Of a stretch of 36,924 nucleotides of DNA, positions 690 through 16,429 are shown piece by piece; positions within the stretch are counted from its first letter, which is position 1; every line of letters starts with the position of its first letter. The stretch is from the IMG/VR virus record IMGVR_UViG_3300045988_134434. The stretch is one strand, 5' to 3'. Below the pieces are notes generated by a model. It was not told the origin of the DNA. It saw nothing but the letters and a program-made list of their open reading frames with translations, and did not search any database. Both the position numbers and the translations under genes were made by a program. This DNA is from a virus.

Positions 690-1742
690 CTAAATTCTGT
701 TTATAGCTTCAAGCTTAACATCCATATCAATTTTAGTATAAACAATCTCAGTAACGTCCTTACCACTATGTCCCACGATCTGCTTAATAATTCTATCATC
801 TACACCAGCCTGCGTAAGACTTGATATCGTAGTATATCTAGTACAGTGCGGGGTATGCTTTATATCCAAATGCGACATCAAAGCTTTCCAGTGTGTTCTA
901 TAAAATCTATCATAAGTCATATTTTCACCTTCAGGAGTAGAAATCAAATACTCCCCGTCCCGAGCCATCCAATATTTAAAAAAAGGTAGCACTTTGTCAG
1001 CGATAGGCACTTCCCTGATTCCTGCCATAGTTTTTGACTTAGCTATAAAAAACCATTGTTCATCAAGGTGAACTTCTGACTTTTTAACCTCAAGCAACTC
1101 CCCGATTCTTACACCCGAGTATAACAACATCAAAACCACACTATAGTAAATATCATCATCTTTGGCAGACCAGACCTTATTTATCTGAGCACTAGAAAAC
1201 TTAGTCCTGGTATAAGAATTAGGATTGCCAGGCTTTGATATATCTAGATACCTGATTTTTTCCCTTTTTTCAACAGGAACTATATCATGAATTACTGCAT
1301 AGTCATACATAAGCCCTAGCATGATTTTTATCTTCTTTAGGGTTGGAGTATTCTTCCCCGATTTGTCTACAAGGTTTTGTAGCTGATCAAGGCGAATTTC
1401 AGAAAAAATCATATCTTTTATAGACTCACAACTTTTATATGCAGCCTTATATCCCGTTATATTTGAATCTGATATTTTTTCAAAGTGGATACTAGACCAT
1501 TTGTTATATATCTCTTCAAAAGTAAGGGTCTTTGCCGATATATCATAAGGCGATTCATTATAGTGGGCCAGTGCCATGATGGCTTCTTTTTGTGTTCTAT
1601 AGTATCCTATAAATTTGTAAATAGGATTAGACTTGCCTTTTTCCGCATCAAAATCCCATCCAGTGGTGATACGAACAGCCCAGGGGTTTCTTCTATTTCC
1701 AGATAATTTATACACACTGCCATAGCCATTAGGGTTCCTCAT
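690..1742 (-). CDS. int: Tyrosine-type site-specific integrase (phage integrase family) with an N-terminal AP2-like arm-binding domain.
   Basis: Catalytic motifs are present: R in VRIGELLEV, HCTRYT (HxxR), GHSGKDVTEIVYTKID (catalytic Y). The N-terminus RNPWAVRITTGWD...GYYRTQKEA is typical of the arm-binding domain. The likely true start is ATG 1742 (MRNPNG), with AAGGAG 9 nt upstream; the track start at 1751 is TTG. Confidence 0.9.
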   Translation of the reverse strand: MRNPNGYGSVYKLSGNRRNPWAVRITTGWDFDAEKGKSNPIYKFIGYYRTQKEAIMALAHYNESPYDISAKTLTFEEIYNKWSSIHFEKISDSNITGYKAAYKSCESIKDMIFSEIRLDQLQNLVDKSGKNTPTLKKIKIMLGLMYDYAVIHDIVPVEKREKIRYLDISKPGNPNSYTRTKFSSAQINKVWSAKDDDIYYSVVLMLLYSGVRIGELLEVKKSEVHLDEQWFFIAKSKTMAGIREVPIADKVLPFFKYWMARDGEYLISTPEGENMTYDRFYRTHWKALMSHLDIKHTPHCTRYTTISSLTQAGVDDRIIKQIVGHSGKDVTEIVYTKIDMDVKLEAINRI

Positions 1743-2265
1743 ATATATCAACTCCTTTTTCTAAATCTTCTTTATCTATAATCACTAAATTAGGTAATTT
1801 ATACAGGTCTAAAAGCAATCTTTCATTGAGCTGCCAATATTGGCCCATATGCCTAAGTGAATATAAATAGTCATATAGCATCCTGTCTGTAGCACCCAGG
1901 TAGTCTGTAAGCTCTTCTACACTGGTAGATATTAAGATATATTTCTTTAAATCCTGCTCATCAATAAAATAGTTAGCACCCCATAGGGTGGCCTTTTGTT
2001 CGCTTTTTGATATTGCTAGTTTTGAAGAATAAGTATTTGGGCAGACAAATGTATCTCCAACACTAGTAGCAAAATGCCCGCATTCTTCGGCCAGTATTTC
2101 AGCCTGTTCTTTCGAGTTTCTATTATGAAATTCAGGACTAAGGAGTATTAAATTCTTGTTATTGATATTACAGTAAAGTGCTGCCTTTTTGAACTTGCTG
2201 AGTTCTGGGCAATTATCAATTAAAATTTCTTGTTCTTCTATGTACTTACAAATTTTTTCTATCAT
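1729..2265 (-). CDS. Hypothetical protein, possibly an ImmA/IrrE-like (DUF955) metallopeptidase-related protein. The usual HEXXH motif is replaced by EECGH.
   Basis: It sits between the repressor operon and int, where ImmA-type proteins are commonly found. The sequence reads LAEECGHFATS instead of a canonical HEXXH. It is tightly packed with int: its stop is 10 nt before the int start. Confidence 0.3.
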   Translation of the reverse strand: MIEKICKYIEEQEILIDNCPELSKFKKAALYCNINNKNLILLSPEFHNRNSKEQAEILAEECGHFATSVGDTFVCPNTYSSKLAISKSEQKATLWGANYFIDEQDLKKYILISTSVEELTDYLGATDRMLYDYLYSLRHMGQYWQLNERLLLDLYKLPNLVIIDKEDLEKGVDIYEEP

Positions 2266-2356: not shown

Positions 2357-3373
2357 TTACATTTCCAACATGTCATAAAATACGTTTTCTGATATTATTT
2401 CTATATTTTGACCACTTTCTTTTAATTTCTCTGCTTTAAGCTGTTTTGTGCTTTTACCATCAGGATCTTTAATCAAAGGGCAATAATCATTGTTTCCAAG
2501 AATTAAAAAATTAGTTTTCTTTGTAACACTCTTTCCATTTTCTCCCCCAAAATCTACAACAAGCTGCATAGCTTGCTTTCTATTCATTTTTTCTAGGGTG
2601 CCAGTAAACACACAAACTTGTCCATATAGTGGATGAGTAATATCAAATTCTGTTTTATCTGTAGTAATATCTTTACAGTCTAGAGGTTTCCTTTTATTTA
2701 TTGCCCTCTTGTAAAATTCGTCTGCAGCATTTCCATCATTTCCAATTACATTTTTAATATGTTGATAAACATTATGAGTAATCTTACAATCAGCAATAGC
2801 TCTGTGAGAACCAGCAGAATCTATATTCAACTCTTGTGCTACTGTTTTAAGTTTGTAATCAGGAAGATCTGATAAAAATCTTTTACTAAACCTCATAACA
2901 TCTATTAAATCATTTTTTATAGGAGAAATATTTCTAGTAAGAGCTTCGTCATATAAAAAATTTATGTCAAAATGCACATTATAGCCAAGTATAATAGAAT
3001 CTCCTGCAAATTGCATAAAATCTTTAATCCCATTTATAGGATTTTCAGCATTATCCAACATTTCTGGGGTGATACCAGTAAGTTTTTGTATAAAATCAGA
3101 CAGCATAGATATATCGTCCGGCCTACAAAATCTTTGGAATTCTTCTACTATTACATTATCAACAACTTTAATTGCACCAATTTCCAAAATATCATCAACC
3201 AATGGATCTAATCCAGTAGTTTCTAAATCCAATACAATATAGTCATCAGGAAACATAAAAAGGCTATTTCCTTTCATGGGTCTAACTCTATATCCATTTT
3301 CATCTAAAATAAAAAAATCTTCTTTCCTTAATTCCATTGATTTAGTATCAGATTTAAAGTTAAATAAACTCAT
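2357..3373 (-). CDS. DnaQ-like DEDDh 3'-5' exonuclease fused to a C-terminal BRCT domain.
   Basis: Exo I motif VLDLETTGLDP, Exo II region ILGYNVHFDINFL, and Exo III motif HRAIADC (DEDDh type). The C-terminal region VCVFTGTL...AMQLVVDFGGENGKSVTKKTNFLILG is BRCT-like. The likely true start is ATG 3373 (MSLFNF), with a GGAGGGG RBS that lies inside the last codons of the repressor gene, 13 nt past its stop. Confidence 0.75.
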   Translation of the reverse strand: MSLFNFKSDTKSMELRKEDFFILDENGYRVRPMKGNSLFMFPDDYIVLDLETTGLDPLVDDILEIGAIKVVDNVIVEEFQRFCRPDDISMLSDFIQKLTGITPEMLDNAENPINGIKDFMQFAGDSIILGYNVHFDINFLYDEALTRNISPIKNDLIDVMRFSKRFLSDLPDYKLKTVAQELNIDSAGSHRAIADCKITHNVYQHIKNVIGNDGNAADEFYKRAINKRKPLDCKDITTDKTEFDITHPLYGQVCVFTGTLEKMNRKQAMQLVVDFGGENGKSVTKKTNFLILGNNDYCPLIKDPDGKSTKQLKAEKLKESGQNIEIISENVFYDMLEM

Positions 3374-3386
3374 AACACCCCTCCAT

Positions 3387-3701
3387 TTACTTGCCATATT
3401 TCATCTTTAAAAATTCTTTAAAGTTTTCCAACTCTGCCTTTGCTTCATCACTCATATCTTCATCAGTATGTGCTGCAAAAGTTTCTGGATGATTTCTTAC
3501 ATTTGTGCGACCAAGGAGATAATCAACCGATACTTCAAATAAATCTGACATTGATCTAAGTATATCAAGACTAGGTTCAACTATTCCATTTTCGTATTTT
3601 GAAATATTAGACTTAGTTAAATTTAACCTATTAGCCAGATCAGTTTGAGTCATGTTAAATTCTTTTCTTAGTAATTTTATTCTATTCCCAAGCAAATTCA
3701 T
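3387..3701 (-). CDS. CI-like XRE-family HTH repressor.
   Basis: HTH motif MTQTDLANRLNLTKSNISKYENG. The true start is ATG 3701, with an AAGGAGGG RBS. It is divergent from a cro-like gene across an operator-bearing intergenic region. Confidence 0.85.
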   Translation of the reverse strand: MNLLGNRIKLLRKEFNMTQTDLANRLNLTKSNISKYENGIVEPSLDILRSMSDLFEVSVDYLLGRTNVRNHPETFAAHTDEDMSDEAKAELENFKEFLKMKYGK

Positions 3702-3779
3702 AGTATCCCTCCTTGCTTTGTATACTATAATTCTACAGTGTTTCACCACAAGAAACAAGCCTATAGAAAAAAGTTTCAT

Positions 3780-9461: not shown

Positions 9462-10508
9462 ATGAATTTCTTAGACTGTTTCGCTGGGATAGGTGGTTTT
9501 AGATTAGGCTTAGAAAAAGCAGGTCATACTTGCATAGGATACGTTGAGAAAGATAAATATGCAAGACAAAGTTATGAGGCTATATATGATACAGGAAAGG
9601 AAAAGTTAATTGGAGAAGATATTACAAAAATTACAGATGAAGAATTTAGAAAACTTAGAGGAAAAGTTGATATGTTGGTCGGGGGATTCCCTTGCCAAGC
9701 TTTTAGTATCGCAGGACATAAAAGGGGGTTTAGTGATACCCGAGGAACTTTATTCTTTGAACTTGTTAGAGCAACCAAACAAATCAAACCACAGATTTTG
9801 TTATTTGAGAACGTCAAAAACTTATTGTCACACGACGAAGGAAAGACATTTGAAACTATCCTCTATACGCTGGATGAGTTGGGGTATGATGTCGAATGGC
9901 AATTGCTTAACTCAAAAAATCACGGAGTTCCACAACACAGAGAAAGAGTGTTCATTGTTGGACATCTTAGAGGAGAACGTGGACGAAAAGTATTTCCTAT
10001 CAGATCGAGTTATAAACAAATTCCTAACAGAAACGAAAAATCAACTAATACCATTACAGCAAGGTATGGAGAGGCACAATCCAACGGATCGTATGTTATT
10101 GAAAATAAGCAAAAGAAAAAAGTAGATAAACTTACTATTTTAGTGAAAGAAGCAACAGTAAAAGGTTATACGGAAGCATGTTTGGGGGACTCAATTAATT
10201 TAGAGTACCCAGACAGTAAAACTAGACGAGGTAGGGTAGGCAAGAAAGTTGCACAAACTTTAACCTCATCATGTAATCAAGGAGTAATAATTTCAGTAGA
10301 GGATACGCAAGTGGTTATGCCTGAAAATACCAAAGAAAAATATAGAGTTAGGAAATTAACTCCTAAAGAGTGCTGGAGATTACAAGGTTTCCCTGACTGG
10401 GCATTTGATAAAGCAAGATCGAGTGGGGTAAGCGACTCACAGCTTTATAAGCAAGCAGGTAATGCAGTTACAGTAAATGTAGCATATGAAATAGGCTTAA
10501 GATTATAA
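9462..10508 (+). CDS. DNA (cytosine-5)-methyltransferase.
   Basis: Motif I FAGIGGF, motif IV GFPCQAFS, motif VI ENVKNL, motif VIII QHRERVFIVG, motif X GNAVTVNVAYEIG. Confidence 0.9.
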   Translation: MNFLDCFAGIGGFRLGLEKAGHTCIGYVEKDKYARQSYEAIYDTGKEKLIGEDITKITDEEFRKLRGKVDMLVGGFPCQAFSIAGHKRGFSDTRGTLFFELVRATKQIKPQILLFENVKNLLSHDEGKTFETILYTLDELGYDVEWQLLNSKNHGVPQHRERVFIVGHLRGERGRKVFPIRSSYKQIPNRNEKSTNTITARYGEAQSNGSYVIENKQKKKVDKLTILVKEATVKGYTEACLGDSINLEYPDSKTRRGRVGKKVAQTLTSSCNQGVIISVEDTQVVMPENTKEKYRVRKLTPKECWRLQGFPDWAFDKARSSGVSDSQLYKQAGNAVTVNVAYEIGLRL

Positions 10509-12054: not shown

Positions 12055-13305
12055 ATGATTAATTCAGAAATATTATATCGATTATTTGAATGTAAAGAAG
12101 GATTTGAACTTCCTGATAAAATTATCGATTTATATATAAATAATAGACAAAGATTAGAGAATATAGCCAATGAATTATCTAAAGGGATAGACCTTAACGA
12201 CAAGGATAGCGATTTGTTTTTAGAATATTTTCAGACTGAACACAGTGACAGAAAGGCCTTAAAACAGGACTATACACCGGGCGAAATAAGTAAGCTTATA
12301 TACAAGTTGGTCAAAAGAGATGGACTTGTGCTAGATCTTTGTGCGGGAACTGGAAGCTTATCTATTCCTTGGTTGATAGATGGCAATAGCAATGAAAGGA
12401 TAATGGAATTCAGGGAATACTCCAAAAGGGCCACTGCATTTTTGTTATTAAACTTGATAATAAGAAAAGCAAATGCAACGGTAAGGCAAATGGATGTATT
12501 AACAGGGGAATGCTTCCAGATGTTAGAAGTGGGGTCGCCACCAAACATTGAACATAAGTTTGATGTTATTATTTCAAACCCACCTTATTCACAAAATTGG
12601 AGCCCAGTTTCGCTAATAGATGAATTAAAAGCACCACCAAAATCAAAGGCAGATTATGCATTTATAATTAGAGGATTGGAAAACCTTAGCGATGATGGTG
12701 TTATGGTGATGGTCTTACCACATGGGGTTCTATTTAGAGGGAATGCAGAAGGCGAAATAAGGAAGTGGTTATTGGAAAAGGGATATATTGAAGCTGTGAT
12801 TGGACTACCTGATTCAATGTTCCAAAATACAGGAATACCGGTTTGCTTAGTCATTTTTAGGAAAAATCGCAAGGACAAAAATGTATTATTTATCGATGCA
12901 AGTAGAGAATTTATTAAGATTAATAAATTCAACAAGCTGGAAGAAAAACACATTGATAAAATTGATTCGGTTTACAAAAATAAATTTGAAGTTAAAAAAT
13001 ATTCGCATATTGCAAGTTATGAAGAGATTAAGAAAAATGACTTTAACCTAAACATTCCAAGATACGTGGATACATCTGAAAAGGAAGAATGCGAACCCTT
13101 AGACGTTGCTATGGCCGATTTATTGGCAATACAGACAGACATAGTTAAGACTCAGGGAGAGTTTATATCTATGATGAAAGAATTGACCGGTAATAGTGAT
13201 GAAGTGCAGCGTGAATTAAATAAGGCTGTTGAGTTTTTGAATGATTCTCAAAAAGTGGAGGTGAATATGCTTGAAAGTGTTGTTAAAGAATTTAGCAAAT
13301 GTTGA
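12055..13305 (+). CDS. N6-adenine DNA methyltransferase, gamma class, HsdM-like.
   Basis: DYTPGEISKLIYKLV...LDLCAGTGSL (motifs X and I), ISNPPYS (motif IV, NPPY). Confidence 0.8.
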   Translation: MINSEILYRLFECKEGFELPDKIIDLYINNRQRLENIANELSKGIDLNDKDSDLFLEYFQTEHSDRKALKQDYTPGEISKLIYKLVKRDGLVLDLCAGTGSLSIPWLIDGNSNERIMEFREYSKRATAFLLLNLIIRKANATVRQMDVLTGECFQMLEVGSPPNIEHKFDVIISNPPYSQNWSPVSLIDELKAPPKSKADYAFIIRGLENLSDDGVMVMVLPHGVLFRGNAEGEIRKWLLEKGYIEAVIGLPDSMFQNTGIPVCLVIFRKNRKDKNVLFIDASREFIKINKFNKLEEKHIDKIDSVYKNKFEVKKYSHIASYEEIKKNDFNLNIPRYVDTSEKEECEPLDVAMADLLAIQTDIVKTQGEFISMMKELTGNSDEVQRELNKAVEFLNDSQKVEVNMLESVVKEFSKC

Positions 13306-14096: not shown

Positions 14097-14561
14097 ATGA
14101 AAAAGGTAAGAGTTAAAAAGGAATTTTTTGAGAGTACTGAGGTTATATTAAGAAATCATAGGGGCATAATCAGGCACATTGGGATTCTAGAGAATACTAT
14201 GGATGAAATAAAAGAGTATAAATCAAGAGGTATTAAATCCATATCTACAGATGGAGTAAAGATATCATCATTTCCAGGGGATTCTATTGGCAAACAGGTA
14301 GTCAAGGTGTCAGAAATGTTGGAGAGAGTACAGAGGGAAATTGATGATGAGAAAAAATATATAAGTCTTGTTGAAAAAGGGATGTCTAACTTAACTGATC
14401 AAGAGAAAGAGATTATTGAAATGAGGTATTTTGACAATATCCCAGATTCTAAAATAGCTTTATATACCAATTACGAGAGGTCTAATATATTTAGAAAGAG
14501 AGTGGCAGCAGTTAGAAAGTTAGCTGTAGTAATATATGGCATAAAGTGTCTAGAATCATAA
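14097..14561 (+). CDS. ArpU-like / sigma-70 region-4-like phage transcriptional regulator.
   Basis: C-terminus LTDQEKEIIEMRYFDNIPDSKIALYTNYERSNIFRKRVAAVRKLA (region-4 HTH). Confidence 0.55.
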   Translation: MKKVRVKKEFFESTEVILRNHRGIIRHIGILENTMDEIKEYKSRGIKSISTDGVKISSFPGDSIGKQVVKVSEMLERVQREIDDEKKYISLVEKGMSNLTDQEKEIIEMRYFDNIPDSKIALYTNYERSNIFRKRVAAVRKLAVVIYGIKCLES

Positions 14562-14689
14562 ATTATAGTGCGAAAAATGACCTGAAATAATACAGAAGGT
14601 TGCAACAAATGTGCAACAAAAAGCCCCTAAATCTGTGTTATCATGTAACTAAGTAAAAGAGTCAGTATTTGTATTATTATCATAAACAC

Positions 14690-14730
14690 AGAGAAGAGAG
14701 AGGAAAAACCCTCTTTCTTTTTTGTTGTCA
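14690..14730 (+). terminator. Probable rho-independent terminator.
   Basis: gagagagg-aaaaa-ccctctttc followed by TTTTTTG. Confidence 0.45.
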
Positions 14731-14758
14731 AAAAATATAAGAAAAGGGGGGATGATAT

Positions 14759-15307
14759 GTGAATTATGTCGAGCCTATAAGAGACAATAATAAACTAGAA
14801 GATATATTGAAGTATCTGAAGAAAACAAACAAAAGAAACTATATACTTTTTTGTCTGGGACTATATACTGGACTAAGAATATCTGATATCTTGAAACTCC
14901 AAGTAAAGCATGTAAAAGACAAAGATAGTATAAGGATTAAAGAGAAGAAGACCAATAAAAGTAGGGTTATTAAGATTAACAAATTCTTAAAAAAGGAGCT
15001 AGATACATATATTGATGGCAAGGAAGAGTACGAATATTTAATTGCAAACTCTAAGACAGGTATTGACCCAATATCAAGACAACATGCTTATAAGATCATC
15101 AGAGATACATGTAATGGCTTTGGTATAGAAAATGTTGGTACACATTCTCTTAGAAAAACATTCGGTTACAATTACTATAACAAGACAAAGAATATTGCAG
15201 TGCTTCAGAATATATTTAATCATAGTGAGCCGTCAATTACTCTTAGATACATAGGGATTAACCAAGATACAATATCTGATGCTTATGAGTCTATGAGTTA
15301 TTTTTAA
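14759..15307 (+). CDS. Catalytic-domain-only tyrosine recombinase (182 aa, FimB/FimE-sized).
   Basis: R in GLRISDILKL, HSLRKTF (HxxR), catalytic Y in ITLRYIG. There is no N-terminal core-binding domain. GTG start with a GGGGGG RBS. Confidence 0.75.
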   Translation: MNYVEPIRDNNKLEDILKYLKKTNKRNYILFCLGLYTGLRISDILKLQVKHVKDKDSIRIKEKKTNKSRVIKINKFLKKELDTYIDGKEEYEYLIANSKTGIDPISRQHAYKIIRDTCNGFGIENVGTHSLRKTFGYNYYNKTKNIAVLQNIFNHSEPSITLRYIGINQDTISDAYESMSYF

Positions 15308-15334
15308 TTTGATTAAATTATTACATATTGAGGG

Positions 15335-15461
15335 GGTGTAATATCTGATGATTAATTTGACGTTTATGATGTATGTCAAATATCTATGATATCAATATGT
15401 TTCCCCATTTATAAATATAGCATATGAAATATTACAGAATATTAGATATGTCATATTTCAA
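15335..15461. promoter_or_regulatory. Inverted-repeat-rich segment downstream of the mini-recombinase. Candidate recombination site or invertible promoter.
   Basis: tgtaatat (15337-15344) and its reverse complement atattaca (15429-15436). tgaaatat (15426-15433) and atatttca (15453-15460). Palindrome tttgac-(12 nt)-gtcaaa at 15356-15380. On the minus strand TTGACA (rc of 15374-15379) sits 17 nt from ATTAAT (rc of 15351-15356). Confidence 0.3.
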
Positions 15462-15520
15462 TGGGTGATTTGAGGACAAATAATTAATTAAAAACTGAAT
15501 GGGTGAAAGGGGGATTCATT

Positions 15521-15940
15521 GTGACACCTAAGAGATATTTAGAGCAAATTCAGGTACTGGAAGCAAAGATAGATTTAAAGCGAGATCAGATAATTGAGGA
15601 GCGAACAAGAGCACAGTCTTGCACGACTGCAATGTCAGAAAGAGTTCAGACTTCACCATGCAGTGATAGTCTTGCCAATATAATTACTAGGATATATGAT
15701 TTTGAAAAGGACATGGCTAATATGATAAACGAATTAATTGACTTAAAACAAGATTCCATATCCAAGATAGATAAGATGAATAATCCGGACTATGTCAGGA
15801 TATTAATGTTAAGATATTTCAAAGGGTATTCACTTATGCAGATAGCCAATGAAATGAATTATAGCTACAGTCACATTAAGCGTAAACATGGGTGGGCCTT
15901 GGAAGAATTCAAACGATATATGAATGATGGGCCACAATGA
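15521..15940 (+). CDS. Sigma-70 region-4-like late transcriptional activator (RinA/DUF1492-like).
   Basis: C-terminus YVRILMLRYFKGYSLMQIANEMNYSYSHIKRKH. GTG start with an AAAGGGGGA RBS. It lies upstream of the packaging genes. Confidence 0.5.
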   Translation: MTPKRYLEQIQVLEAKIDLKRDQIIEERTRAQSCTTAMSERVQTSPCSDSLANIITRIYDFEKDMANMINELIDLKQDSISKIDKMNNPDYVRILMLRYFKGYSLMQIANEMNYSYSHIKRKHGWALEEFKRYMNDGPQ

Positions 15941-16095
15941 GCCATTGATATATGTTAATATGTTAGTGTGGAAATAGAAAAGGCTAATAAAAATCTCTAA
16001 CACATTACACAATATCCAATCAATCTATTTCCCACAATTAGTTTATGGGAGTTTCATATACCTCCTTTTAACATATAAATTTTTAATAATTCCAA

Positions 16096-16128
16096 GAAAG
16101 ATAGCCAACTACCTAGGCTATCTTTTTT
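16096..16128 (+). terminator. Rho-independent terminator.
   Basis: aagatagcc-aactaccta-ggctatctt followed by TTTTT. Confidence 0.65.
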
Positions 16129-16174
16129 GGTGTGTTGATTTATTAGTATCTTGAGTTTAGAAAGGGGGGACCTT

Positions 16175-16429
16175 ATGAGTAATGAATTAAAGACTAAACA
16201 CCAAGTAACAAACGATATTATAAATATGGTAGTCAATCATAAGTTAACAACCAGGGAAGTTAATGAGGTATGCTTTGCAGTTATGTATCACCTGCTTTTA
16301 AATAAGGATAACGTTAGAATCATAAAAGAAGACATGGGGATTGATATATTTAAACTAAAGGGAACAGAGTTAATTGACTTTGTTCACGCTATGAATAAAT
16401 CATTTATGGTGATGAGTGAGGATGAATAG
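16175..16429 (+). CDS. Hypothetical protein.
   Basis: AAAGGGGGG RBS upstream of ATG 16175. Confidence 0.4.
   Translation: MSNELKTKHQVTNDIINMVVNHKLTTREVNEVCFAVMYHLLLNKDNVRIIKEDMGIDIFKLKGTELIDFVHAMNKSFMVMSEDE

Follow-up and report, generated by a model that had tools for sequence, protein, structure and literature searches.

A catalytic-domain-only, Xer-like tyrosine recombinase linked to a conserved two-site element ahead of the late genes of a temperate siphovirus-type phage

The 36,924-nt stretch of viral DNA analyzed here (IMG/VR virus record IMGVR_UViG_3300045988_134434; hereafter, the window) represents a temperate phage of the siphovirus type, either as a genome or as a prophage, and encodes, at 14759–15307 (+) and from a GTG start, a tyrosine recombinase of 182 aa consisting of the catalytic domain only, which we designate Rec. 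Computational comparison with relatives showed that the spacer downstream of the Rec gene carries four half-sites (consensus xxTTxACA) forming two inversely oriented palindromic sites of 27 and 28 bp, and that this element is conserved in its architecture and exclusively linked to the Rec gene. The gene-plus-site unit, which recurs in phages of Bacillus, Clostridium, Streptococcus, and Lachnospiraceae, is preceded by an ArpU/Ltr-type regulator and followed by the packaging genes. By analogy with known systems, we tentatively favor the reading that the unit is a module of the Xer/dif or Cre/lox type, which would recombine at one of the two sites (site 2) between genome copies, with the other (site 1) as an accessory. 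A literature search found no description of this recombinase-plus-bipartite-site module, and members of the Rec family are annotated only as "integrase" or "site-specific recombinase".

Results and Discussion

Architecture and conservation of the two-site element

The comparison set consisted of contigs with an identical Rec (L003–L012), relatives with a Rec of 90% (L013–L018) or 87% (L019–L026) identity, and 80 IMG/VR loci. In the window, site 1, TTATTACATAT-TGAGG-GGGTGTAATAT (15318–15344), has an 11-5-11 layout and is the proposed accessory site, and site 2, ATATTACAGAA-TATTAG-ATATGTCATAT (15429–15456), has a dif-like 11-6-11 layout and is the proposed crossover site; the four arms lie at 15318–28, 15334–44, 15429–39, and 15446–56. 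The original prediction for this region had drawn attention to a short inverted repeat, tgtaatat (15337–15344) and atattaca (15429–15436), which was located and corresponds to the right arm of site 1 and the left arm of site 2, where the match extends to 11 of 13 bases. The 8-mer alone is at chance level: ATATTACA was counted six times in the window for an expectation of 3.95, a count of six was reached in 20 of 100 shuffled sequences, and the 1.75-kb region around Rec contains 100 inverted-repeat pairs. Set beside the relatives, the short inverted repeat is real, but it is one part of a larger architecture of four half-sites.

The family consensus of site 1 is xxTTxACATAW-(T/C)GAGN-nnnTGTxAAxx, with a spacer of 5 nt in 70 elements, 6 nt in 44, and 4 nt in 12. 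The center of site 2, AA-TATWAG-ATATG, is nearly invariant from Bacillus to Clostridium to Streptococcus. Its core, ACANAATATNAGATATG, lies 84–141 nt after the Rec stop codon in 47 of 87 distinct loci (allowing up to one mismatch), and all 11 exact matches found as "controls" in 1.04 Mb proved to be copies of this element that inserted genes have shifted to a position further downstream. Sites 1 and 2 shift jointly, as one unit, where such genes are inserted. Among 120 exact matches to the core in IMG/VR, ~100 have palindromic arms, and all of those with enough upstream sequence follow a Rec gene on the same strand. In the window, site 2 is present as a single copy, with no second copy that could be a partner for a large inversion or excision. 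When one genome per species is counted, only ~40% of the loci have the canonical core. The Lachnospiraceae phages show the same layout with a 13-nt inter-arm spacer.

The distance between the two sites, measured from start to start, is 84 bp in 57 elements, 85 bp in 12, 87 bp in 19, and 83 bp in 9. In the clade of the window, it is 109–111 bp (111 bp in the window), because of an additional, clade-specific 27-bp middle palindrome, ATTTGACG-N11-TGTCAAAT (15355–15381), one arm of which is mutated in L006 (TGCCAAAT) despite an identical recombinase. An Rfam scan of 14500–16300 (E up to 10) gave nothing above noise.

Invariably, the element stands between Rec and late genes of the same strand, with TerL at a median of ~1.9 kb downstream, and in the simplest relatives (L025) it occupies the entire spacer between Rec and the HNH gene. 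The gene that follows it is variable (a DUF1492 regulator, DUF6275, a Bro-N module, HNH, or a 46-aa ORF), with the element itself constant; the second Ltr-type regulator found at this place in the window is, therefore, a variable neighbor outside the conserved gene-plus-site unit. Both edges of the element behave as hot spots of module exchange. Mosaic breakpoints lie directly to the right of site 2, and in other phages, unrelated genes stand between Rec and site 1, such as a 316-aa ORF in L076 and L063 and a 91-aa ORF in L080; the loci concerned are L006 and L008 (3700–5060), L015 (~3700), L076/L063 (3543–5010), L080, L090, L093, and L096.

Rec as a catalytic-domain-only recombinase

Rec matches the Pfam family Phage_integrase (PF00589) over residues 10–167 with an E value of 1e-28 (100.7 bits; cutoff, 27.1), which places it in the tyrosine recombinase superfamily, and also matches phrog_216. 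The complete catalytic set that the original prediction had read from this ORF is present: R40, K64/K67, H129, R132, H155, and Y164, together with an N-terminal MNxVxPIR motif, are invariant in an alignment of 27 homologues down to 50% identity. The absence of an N-terminal core-binding domain is likewise borne out by the extent of the Pfam match and by an AlphaFold model (pLDDT of 90.3), in which the predicted structure is a bare catalytic domain. By sequence and fold, the closest proteins are XerA and XerH, followed by XerD, Tn1549 Int, IntI4, and Cre. Nevertheless, Rec falls short of every Xer cutoff, scoring 91.5 bits against NCBIfam XerA (cutoff, 220), 61.4 against XerS (267), and 61.8 against XerD (329.6). 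It also departs from the two-domain organization of Xer proteins, as its alignments begin at XerA residue 121 or later and its 182 aa correspond to the catalytic domain. The proposed kinship with FimB and FimE comes down to a likeness in size, as the scores against the invertase models NF007371 and NF007370 were 41.8 and 33.5 bits, far under the cutoffs of 222 and 221. Taken together, the sequence comparisons and the predicted structure indicate that Rec is a genuine tyrosine recombinase with a catalytic domain only and is Xer-like rather than FimB/E-like. It is distinct from the lysogeny integrase of the window (690–1751, −).

Recognition of the arms

The arms change in concert between lineages (ATATTACA, ATTTGACA, GTTTAACA, GTTACACA, ACTTGACA, and GTTATACA), and two residues of Rec follow these changes. 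Residues 108 and 112 are one turn apart (i, i+4) in helix 107–120 of the Rec model, and residues 107–108 align with the "RQ" of XerD, in the region of DNA recognition. Residue 108 tracks base 5 of the half-site (Q with G/T in 106 of 110 arms, V with A in 71 of 92, S with C in 74 of 100, and R with G in 12 of 12), and residue 112 tracks base 3 in the RQxAY subgroup (N with T in 63 of 64 arms, K with A in 17 of 24, and R with G in 4 of 4), although shared ancestry inflates these covariation statistics. For the same reason, the mutual information of all Rec columns with half-site bases was noisy, and only the signal of helix 107–120, which was checked in close clades, was kept.

Within the clade of the window, K112 goes with the half-site ATATTACA in the window, L013, and L029 (Rec identities of 100, 90, and 76%, respectively). 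In L032 (93%), residue 112 is R and all four arms read ATGT(G/T)ACA, and in L019 (87%), it is N and all four arms read ATTT(G/T)ACA. In L030 and L031 (71%), it is E and the half-sites are mixed (A, T, or C at base 3), with AT(C/A)TGACA in site 2. The pairing of N112 with T is seen again in Lachnospiraceae proteins with only ~50% identity to the Rec of the window. From these patterns, we strongly infer that Rec binds the four arms, as it would otherwise be hard to explain that residue and base switch together repeatedly in closely related loci, and do so on a single side of the helix expected to recognize DNA. The fallback suggestion of the original prediction, that the repeat is the recombinase's own site, thus probably holds, since on comparison of relatives its arms correspond to Rec half-sites.

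An alternative to which we would give little weight is that the half-sites are operators of the ArpU/Ltr activator and part of a late promoter, with Rec being an unrelated passenger gene. The half-site sequences TTGACA, TTTACA, and TTAACA resemble −35 hexamers, Ltr proteins have a helix-turn-helix like that of sigma region 4, and the element is at the position expected of a late promoter. Ltr boxes have been described as 7-nt repeats near the activator gene, and the direct repeats to which an Ltr protein binds are located a short way past the gene encoding it (PMC3753634). On the other hand, the arms are identical in the window and L013, where the Rec proteins are 90% identical and the upstream regulators come from different Ltr families, with a local match of only 41 residues at 27% identity. 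The arms also covary with Rec residues 108 and 112, and Rec is, therefore, favored over the Ltr regulator as the arm binder. Moreover, a separate pair of direct repeats is present directly after the regulator gene, and the 11-6-11 palindrome is the layout of a recombinase site, whereas the described Ltr boxes are direct repeats. Finally, the plasmid homologues of Rec, described below, keep sites like site 2, and no ArpU-type gene is annotated beside the four plasmid loci examined.

Relationship of the two sites

Site 1 is an arm-for-arm inverted, imperfect copy of site 2, in which the outer arms are alike and the inner arms are alike, but the central regions are unrelated (TGAGG in site 1 against TATTAG, or CTAATA as the reverse complement, in site 2); the same holds across the element family. 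These relations bear on the claim of the original prediction that the region is a phase-variable switch, in which Rec inverts the segment between the repeats and thereby turns a promoter (or terminator) toward or away from the late activator. It is true that a short segment directly ahead of a regulator gene is bounded by a pair of complete, inverted recombinase sites, that Rec has the size of FimB and FimE, which are also small tyrosine recombinases, and that the center-to-center distance is near the minimum known for Cre (~82 bp). However, tyrosine recombinases exchange strands in the central region and need homology there, and inversion between sites 1 and 2 should, therefore, be abortive, because their central regions share none. 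In the FimB/FimE–fimS and C. difficile RecV systems, a short regulatory segment ahead of a gene is bounded by inverted elements to which the recombinase binds (PMC2784873). Those systems have matching inverted cores and coexisting orientations, whereas in the Rec element only the arms are inverted copies, the centers differ, and one orientation is seen.

The comparison of relatives for the opposite orientation gave only the native one, in ~140 distinct elements and ~20 near-identical contigs, although assemblies report the majority orientation and a rare inversion, for which nothing positive speaks, could still take place. None of 10 ENA/Logan contigs with an identical Rec had the opposite orientation, all being native, and the predicted inverted junction had 0 matches in metagenome contigs compared with 9 for the native junction. 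When 58 unique middle segments were each compared with all the others for inverted copies, 792 plus-strand matches were obtained, and the minus-strand matches were at most 14 nt long and located at the palindromic arms.

The analysis also covered the promoter proposed for the segment. The letters of a leftward TTGACA-17-ATTAAT are present, but they do not match the promoter consensus, as ATTAAT lacks the A at position 2 of the −10 hexamer and was missed by a sigma-70 consensus scan, whose matches in the region were at chance level (18 compared with 17.5 expected). The TTGACA is the right arm of the middle palindrome at 15355–15381, and no equivalent promoter was found in relatives with a 90%-identical Rec. 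Reading the conserved center of site 2 as a −10 or −35 element also gave no consistent hexamer. The downstream gene was correctly recognized as RinA/DUF1492-like, being of the Ltr/DUF1492 type with a start at 15503 or 15521, but it is the variable neighbor described above. With unmatched centers, a single orientation, a nonconserved promoter, a variable downstream gene, and invertase-family scores far under the cutoffs, we regard the inversion model as very improbable and rank it last among the readings considered. It follows that an inverted repeat beside a small recombinase is insufficient for calling a phase switch.

The inverted relation of the two sites also raises the alternative of a folded single-strand site, similar to integron attC or the attP(+) of the CTX phage, in which site 1 would pair with site 2 and one strand would be exchanged, for example, in the fusion of genome copies. 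Both known systems share with the Rec element four boxes, two inverted simple sites, spacers that differ by 1 nt, noncomplementary centers, and a similar size; the Rec element is 110–140 bp long and, as in attC, has a mismatched center, and the CTX site is an inverted pair of dif-like sites ~90 nt apart. In addition, the complementarity across the pair of sites is 0.74 compared with 0.65 locally, being higher across than locally in 38 arm sets and lower in 5. However, attC and CTX sites are used by IntI or host XerCD in the form of folded single strands, and no single-strand signal was found for the Rec element: the mismatches (41 G.T, 30 A.C, and 176 other) show no strand-specific wobble bias, and the minimum-energy single-stranded DNA fold of the window element consists of local hairpins with no stem between site 1 and site 2. 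Each site alone is a well-formed double-stranded palindrome, the loop of 56–84 nt would be long, and the phage is a double-stranded cos siphovirus without an obligatory single-stranded stage. This alternative is, hence, rated as improbable and, like the Ltr-operator reading, below both the recombination module and the regulatory complex discussed later. A reading of the arms as RNA or single-strand hairpins was also tried and rejected, given the lack of a G.T over A.C bias, the persistence of conserved mismatches, and the local fold.

Distribution of Rec

More than 6,500 homologues of Rec were found at E ≤ 1e-10. Homologues of the same length (33–59% identity) are present on 1,194 plasmid records, which include 8–16-kb plasmids, Enterococcus megaplasmids, pBS32, and many clostridial phage-plasmids of 34–45 kb. 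The plasmid copies adjoin single sites like site 2, such as ATGTAACACAA-TGGTAA-TTATGTTACAT in a Macrococcus plasmid, which suggests that the ancestral job of the protein was recombination. In phiCD6356, parA is present, and Rec is the sole annotated recombinase within the last 5.5 kb of the genome. Its relative phiCD38-2 persists as an extrachromosomal circle (PMC6127314).

Several further homologues were observed in other settings. In ~10-kb satellite-like elements of S. suis (L236, Streptococcus satellite Javan555, 9496–10038), which encode an integrase, an XRE regulator, and a primase, a Rec homologue is the terminal gene, and the record stops at its stop codon, so that any site would lie beyond it. 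On a 133-kb E. faecium plasmid (L320, NZ_CP040906, 1989–3692), a 184-aa homologue is convergent with and adjoins a plasmid-borne xerS. Homologues of ~50% identity outside Bacillota occur in metagenome-assembled genomes of Candidatus Gastranaerophilales (L261, L303, L309, and L314) and in a contig labelled Lutibacter sp. (L293), which may reflect host range, horizontal transfer, or binning errors. The copies in L261 and L309 precede a different palindrome, TGTAACAAAAT-N4-ATTTTGTTAC.

Leader and putative control region upstream of Rec

An ArpU/sigma-like protein is encoded immediately upstream of Rec in 148 of 193 distinct loci, and in ~60 of them, its gene overlaps the Rec start by 1–4 nt. The region upstream of Rec was compared in relatives that included L001, L013, L014, L019, L029, L030, and L032. 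In the window, two direct repeats, TGCAACAAA ×2 (14601–14620, +), lie directly after the upstream regulator gene and are predicted as candidate Ltr-binding boxes, because their position matches that reported for Ltr boxes (PMC3753634); lineage-specific repeat pairs are found at the equivalent position in L013, L029, L030, and L032. They are followed by a putative extended −10-like element, TGtTATCAT (14636–14644, +), with equivalents in L032 (TGtTATAAT), L013 (TGgTATTAT), and phiCD6356 (TGtTAGAAT). Just before the Rec ribosome-binding site, a strong intrinsic terminator is predicted in the leader at 14686–14733 (+), with an RNA fold of −22.1 kcal/mol (z-score of −3.4) and a subsequent U-run, and a comparable hairpin was seen in all 8 divergent relatives examined. 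The whole order in 14562–14758, that is, the two direct repeats, the extended −10-like element, a leader of 45–70 nt, and the intrinsic terminator, is also kept in 8 of 8 divergent relatives. Read from the sequence, this arrangement suggests an Ltr-dependent transcript whose leader attenuates Rec expression.

Possible roles of the gene-plus-site unit

In the reading we favor, albeit at somewhat less than even confidence, Rec, as an XerD-like catalytic domain without a core-binding domain, would bind the four half-sites of sites 1 and 2. Crossover would take place at site 2, which has the canonical 11-6-11 layout and a near-invariant center, with site 2 of another genome copy. Multimers of circular phage DNA would thereby be resolved, or monomers and multimers converted into one another, in the way that Cre/loxP serves P1 and Xer/dif serves chromosomes and plasmids. 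Site 1, at a fixed and helically phased distance and usually with a noncanonical spacer of 4–5 bp, would be an accessory site bound by Rec, which shapes the synapse and sets the selectivity, as do the extra TnpI motifs in the resolution site of Tn4430/Tn5401.

This proposal draws on several known systems. The best sequence and structure matches to Rec, which has the full catalytic set, are the single-recombinase Xer systems (XerA/dif of archaea, XerH/difH, and XerS/difSL) and XerD/dif. Site 2 agrees with an Xer cognate site, being 28 bp long with two palindromic 11-bp arms and a 6-bp center and located beside the recombinase gene; it is conserved, its arms covary with the protein, and the "RQ" of the recognition helix is retained. 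The XerD arm of dif is TTATGTTAAAT, and its reverse complement, ATTTAACATAA, matches the Rec arm consensus, xxTTxACATAA. Unlike the Xer proteins (~290–360 aa), however, Rec has no core-binding domain, its unit has two inverted sites at a fixed spacing instead of one site, and it is phage-borne beside a late-gene activator with no evident FtsK-type control.

Cre of P1 offers a second parallel as a phage-encoded tyrosine recombinase with its own palindromic site (loxP) near its gene and independent of a lysogeny integrase. The multimers that Cre resolves are those of a plasmid prophage, and the clostridial relatives of the window phage are phage-plasmids. The differences are that Cre is a two-domain protein with only ~14% identity to Rec, that loxP is a single 13-8-13 site, and that the window phage integrates via a separate integrase. 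The third parallel is TnpI, whose resolution site in Tn4430/Tn5401 is ~116 bp long, lies beside its gene, and consists of four motifs (a core pair and accessory motifs) bound by the same protein. TnpI is, in contrast, a two-domain protein of 284 aa and not a detectable close relative of Rec, and its accessory motifs are arranged as direct repeats instead of another inverted pair. A resolution-type role, proposed by analogy, would fit the distribution of Rec on plasmids and phage-plasmids and the presence of a separate, full-length integrase for lysogeny in the window phage.

Several considerations weigh against this proposal. The reaction of Rec is proposed from the sequence, and members of the phi105 type (B. 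subtilis) and of Gastranaerophilales have no recognizable canonical element. Resolution has no obvious need for two inverted sites at a fixed 84-bp phase or for a crossover region conserved across host phyla. The gene is located in an operon of the lytic direction beside the late activator, often translationally coupled to it, which is an unusual place for plasmid-maintenance genes. Late resolution of multimers would also be without evident benefit, because a cos phage packages from concatemers; the opposite direction, the making of multimers, is speculative. Lastly, having lost the core-binding domain, Rec may carry out a limited or altered reaction.

The main rival to this proposal, which we regard as unlikely, is that the unit is a regulatory nucleoprotein complex without productive recombination. 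In such a complex, Rec dimers on sites 1 and 2 would synapse over the phased interval of 84 bp (111 bp in the window) and gate late expression, acting on read-through or promoter activity as a roadblock, a loop, or a local nicking-closing device, and thereby time the late genes. The sharply conserved spacing of ~8 helical turns is in line with this alternative, and so are the nonhomologous centers, owing to which a site 1–site 2 synapse could not finish strand exchange. The same applies to the location of the element between Rec and the late genes, to its filling of the entire Rec–HNH spacer in the simplest relatives, to the putative Ltr boxes, extended −10, and terminator-bearing leader ahead of Rec, and to the tight linkage of Rec with ArpU genes. 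There is also a precedent in Tn5401, in which TnpI recombines at the resolution site and represses a promoter within it. On the opposite side, the invariance of all six catalytic residues throughout this very large family argues that the chemistry matters, the plasmid homologues with a single adjacent site point to ancestral recombination, and no promoter is recognizable inside the element. Furthermore, Ltr proteins by themselves suffice to activate late promoters in reporter assays (PMC3753634).

Genomic context in the window

The nearest relatives of the window phage are found in Peptostreptococcus. Besides the integrase noted above, its leftward genes include a cI-like repressor (3387–3779, −) and, between these two, an exonuclease of the RNase T family fused to a BRCT domain (2357–3397, −). 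The replication genes comprise a DnaB-type helicase and a single-stranded DNA-binding protein, and the phage also encodes two DNA methylases, namely, a C5-cytosine methylase and an N6-adenine methylase (9462–10508 and 12055–13305, respectively).

The regulator upstream of Rec (14097–14561, +) is an ArpU/Ltr-type protein of 154 aa, like sigma-70 region 4, as indicated by matches to Sigma70_r4 and phrog_36. The second Ltr-type regulator, downstream of the element (15503 or 15521 to 15940, +), is DUF1492/LtrB-like, with 21.8 bits against DUF1492 (cutoff, 21.5) and an E value of 5e-22 against phrog_36. The presence of two different regulators of the Ltr superfamily, one sigma-r4/ArpU-like and the other DUF1492-like, on the two sides of Rec suggests a two-step activator cascade in the clade of the window. 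Candidate direct repeats, ATATGTTA ×2, are located after the second regulator gene at ~15949–15965, apart from the Rec sites, and are followed by a terminator-like hairpin at 16092–16130 (+), with 15-nt arms of 93% complementarity and a subsequent T-run. The late operon then comprises HNH, TerS, TerL, portal, and the remaining late genes. An internal copy of the window phage with the native element was observed in a 439,925-bp contig (L229, BNJS01001363.1), which could reveal the host and the attachment site.

Implications

The chemistry and site logic of the unit are those known from Xer- and Cre-like systems, whereas the single-domain protein, the pairing and phasing of its inverted sites, and its position where the late genes begin are undescribed. 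Rec-family genes annotated as "integrase" serve as lysogeny markers; in the present case, such a gene encodes a second recombinase with its own conserved site. Knowing the role of Rec would fill a gap at the early-to-late transition in a very large group of Gram-positive phages, covering those of C. difficile, C. botulinum, the B. cereus group, and streptococci, as well as phage-plasmids and satellites. Furthermore, the very small size of these tyrosine recombinases, their 28-bp sites, and a specificity code that can be read from two residues (108 for base 5 and 112 for base 3) would make them attractive as orthogonal tools for genome engineering. As a bolder and rather unlikely proposal, thousands of temperate phages, satellites, and plasmids of Firmicutes may share a minimal and undescribed recombination device, composed of a 180-aa XerD-derived domain, with its specificity largely in two residues of one helix, and phased inverted dif-like sites at the early-to-late junction, which might time late expression via an active but nonrecombining synapse or make multimeric DNA for cos/HNH packaging. 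If this were true, it would add a new layer of processing or regulation to phage development and provide a natural library of orthogonal mini-recombinases.

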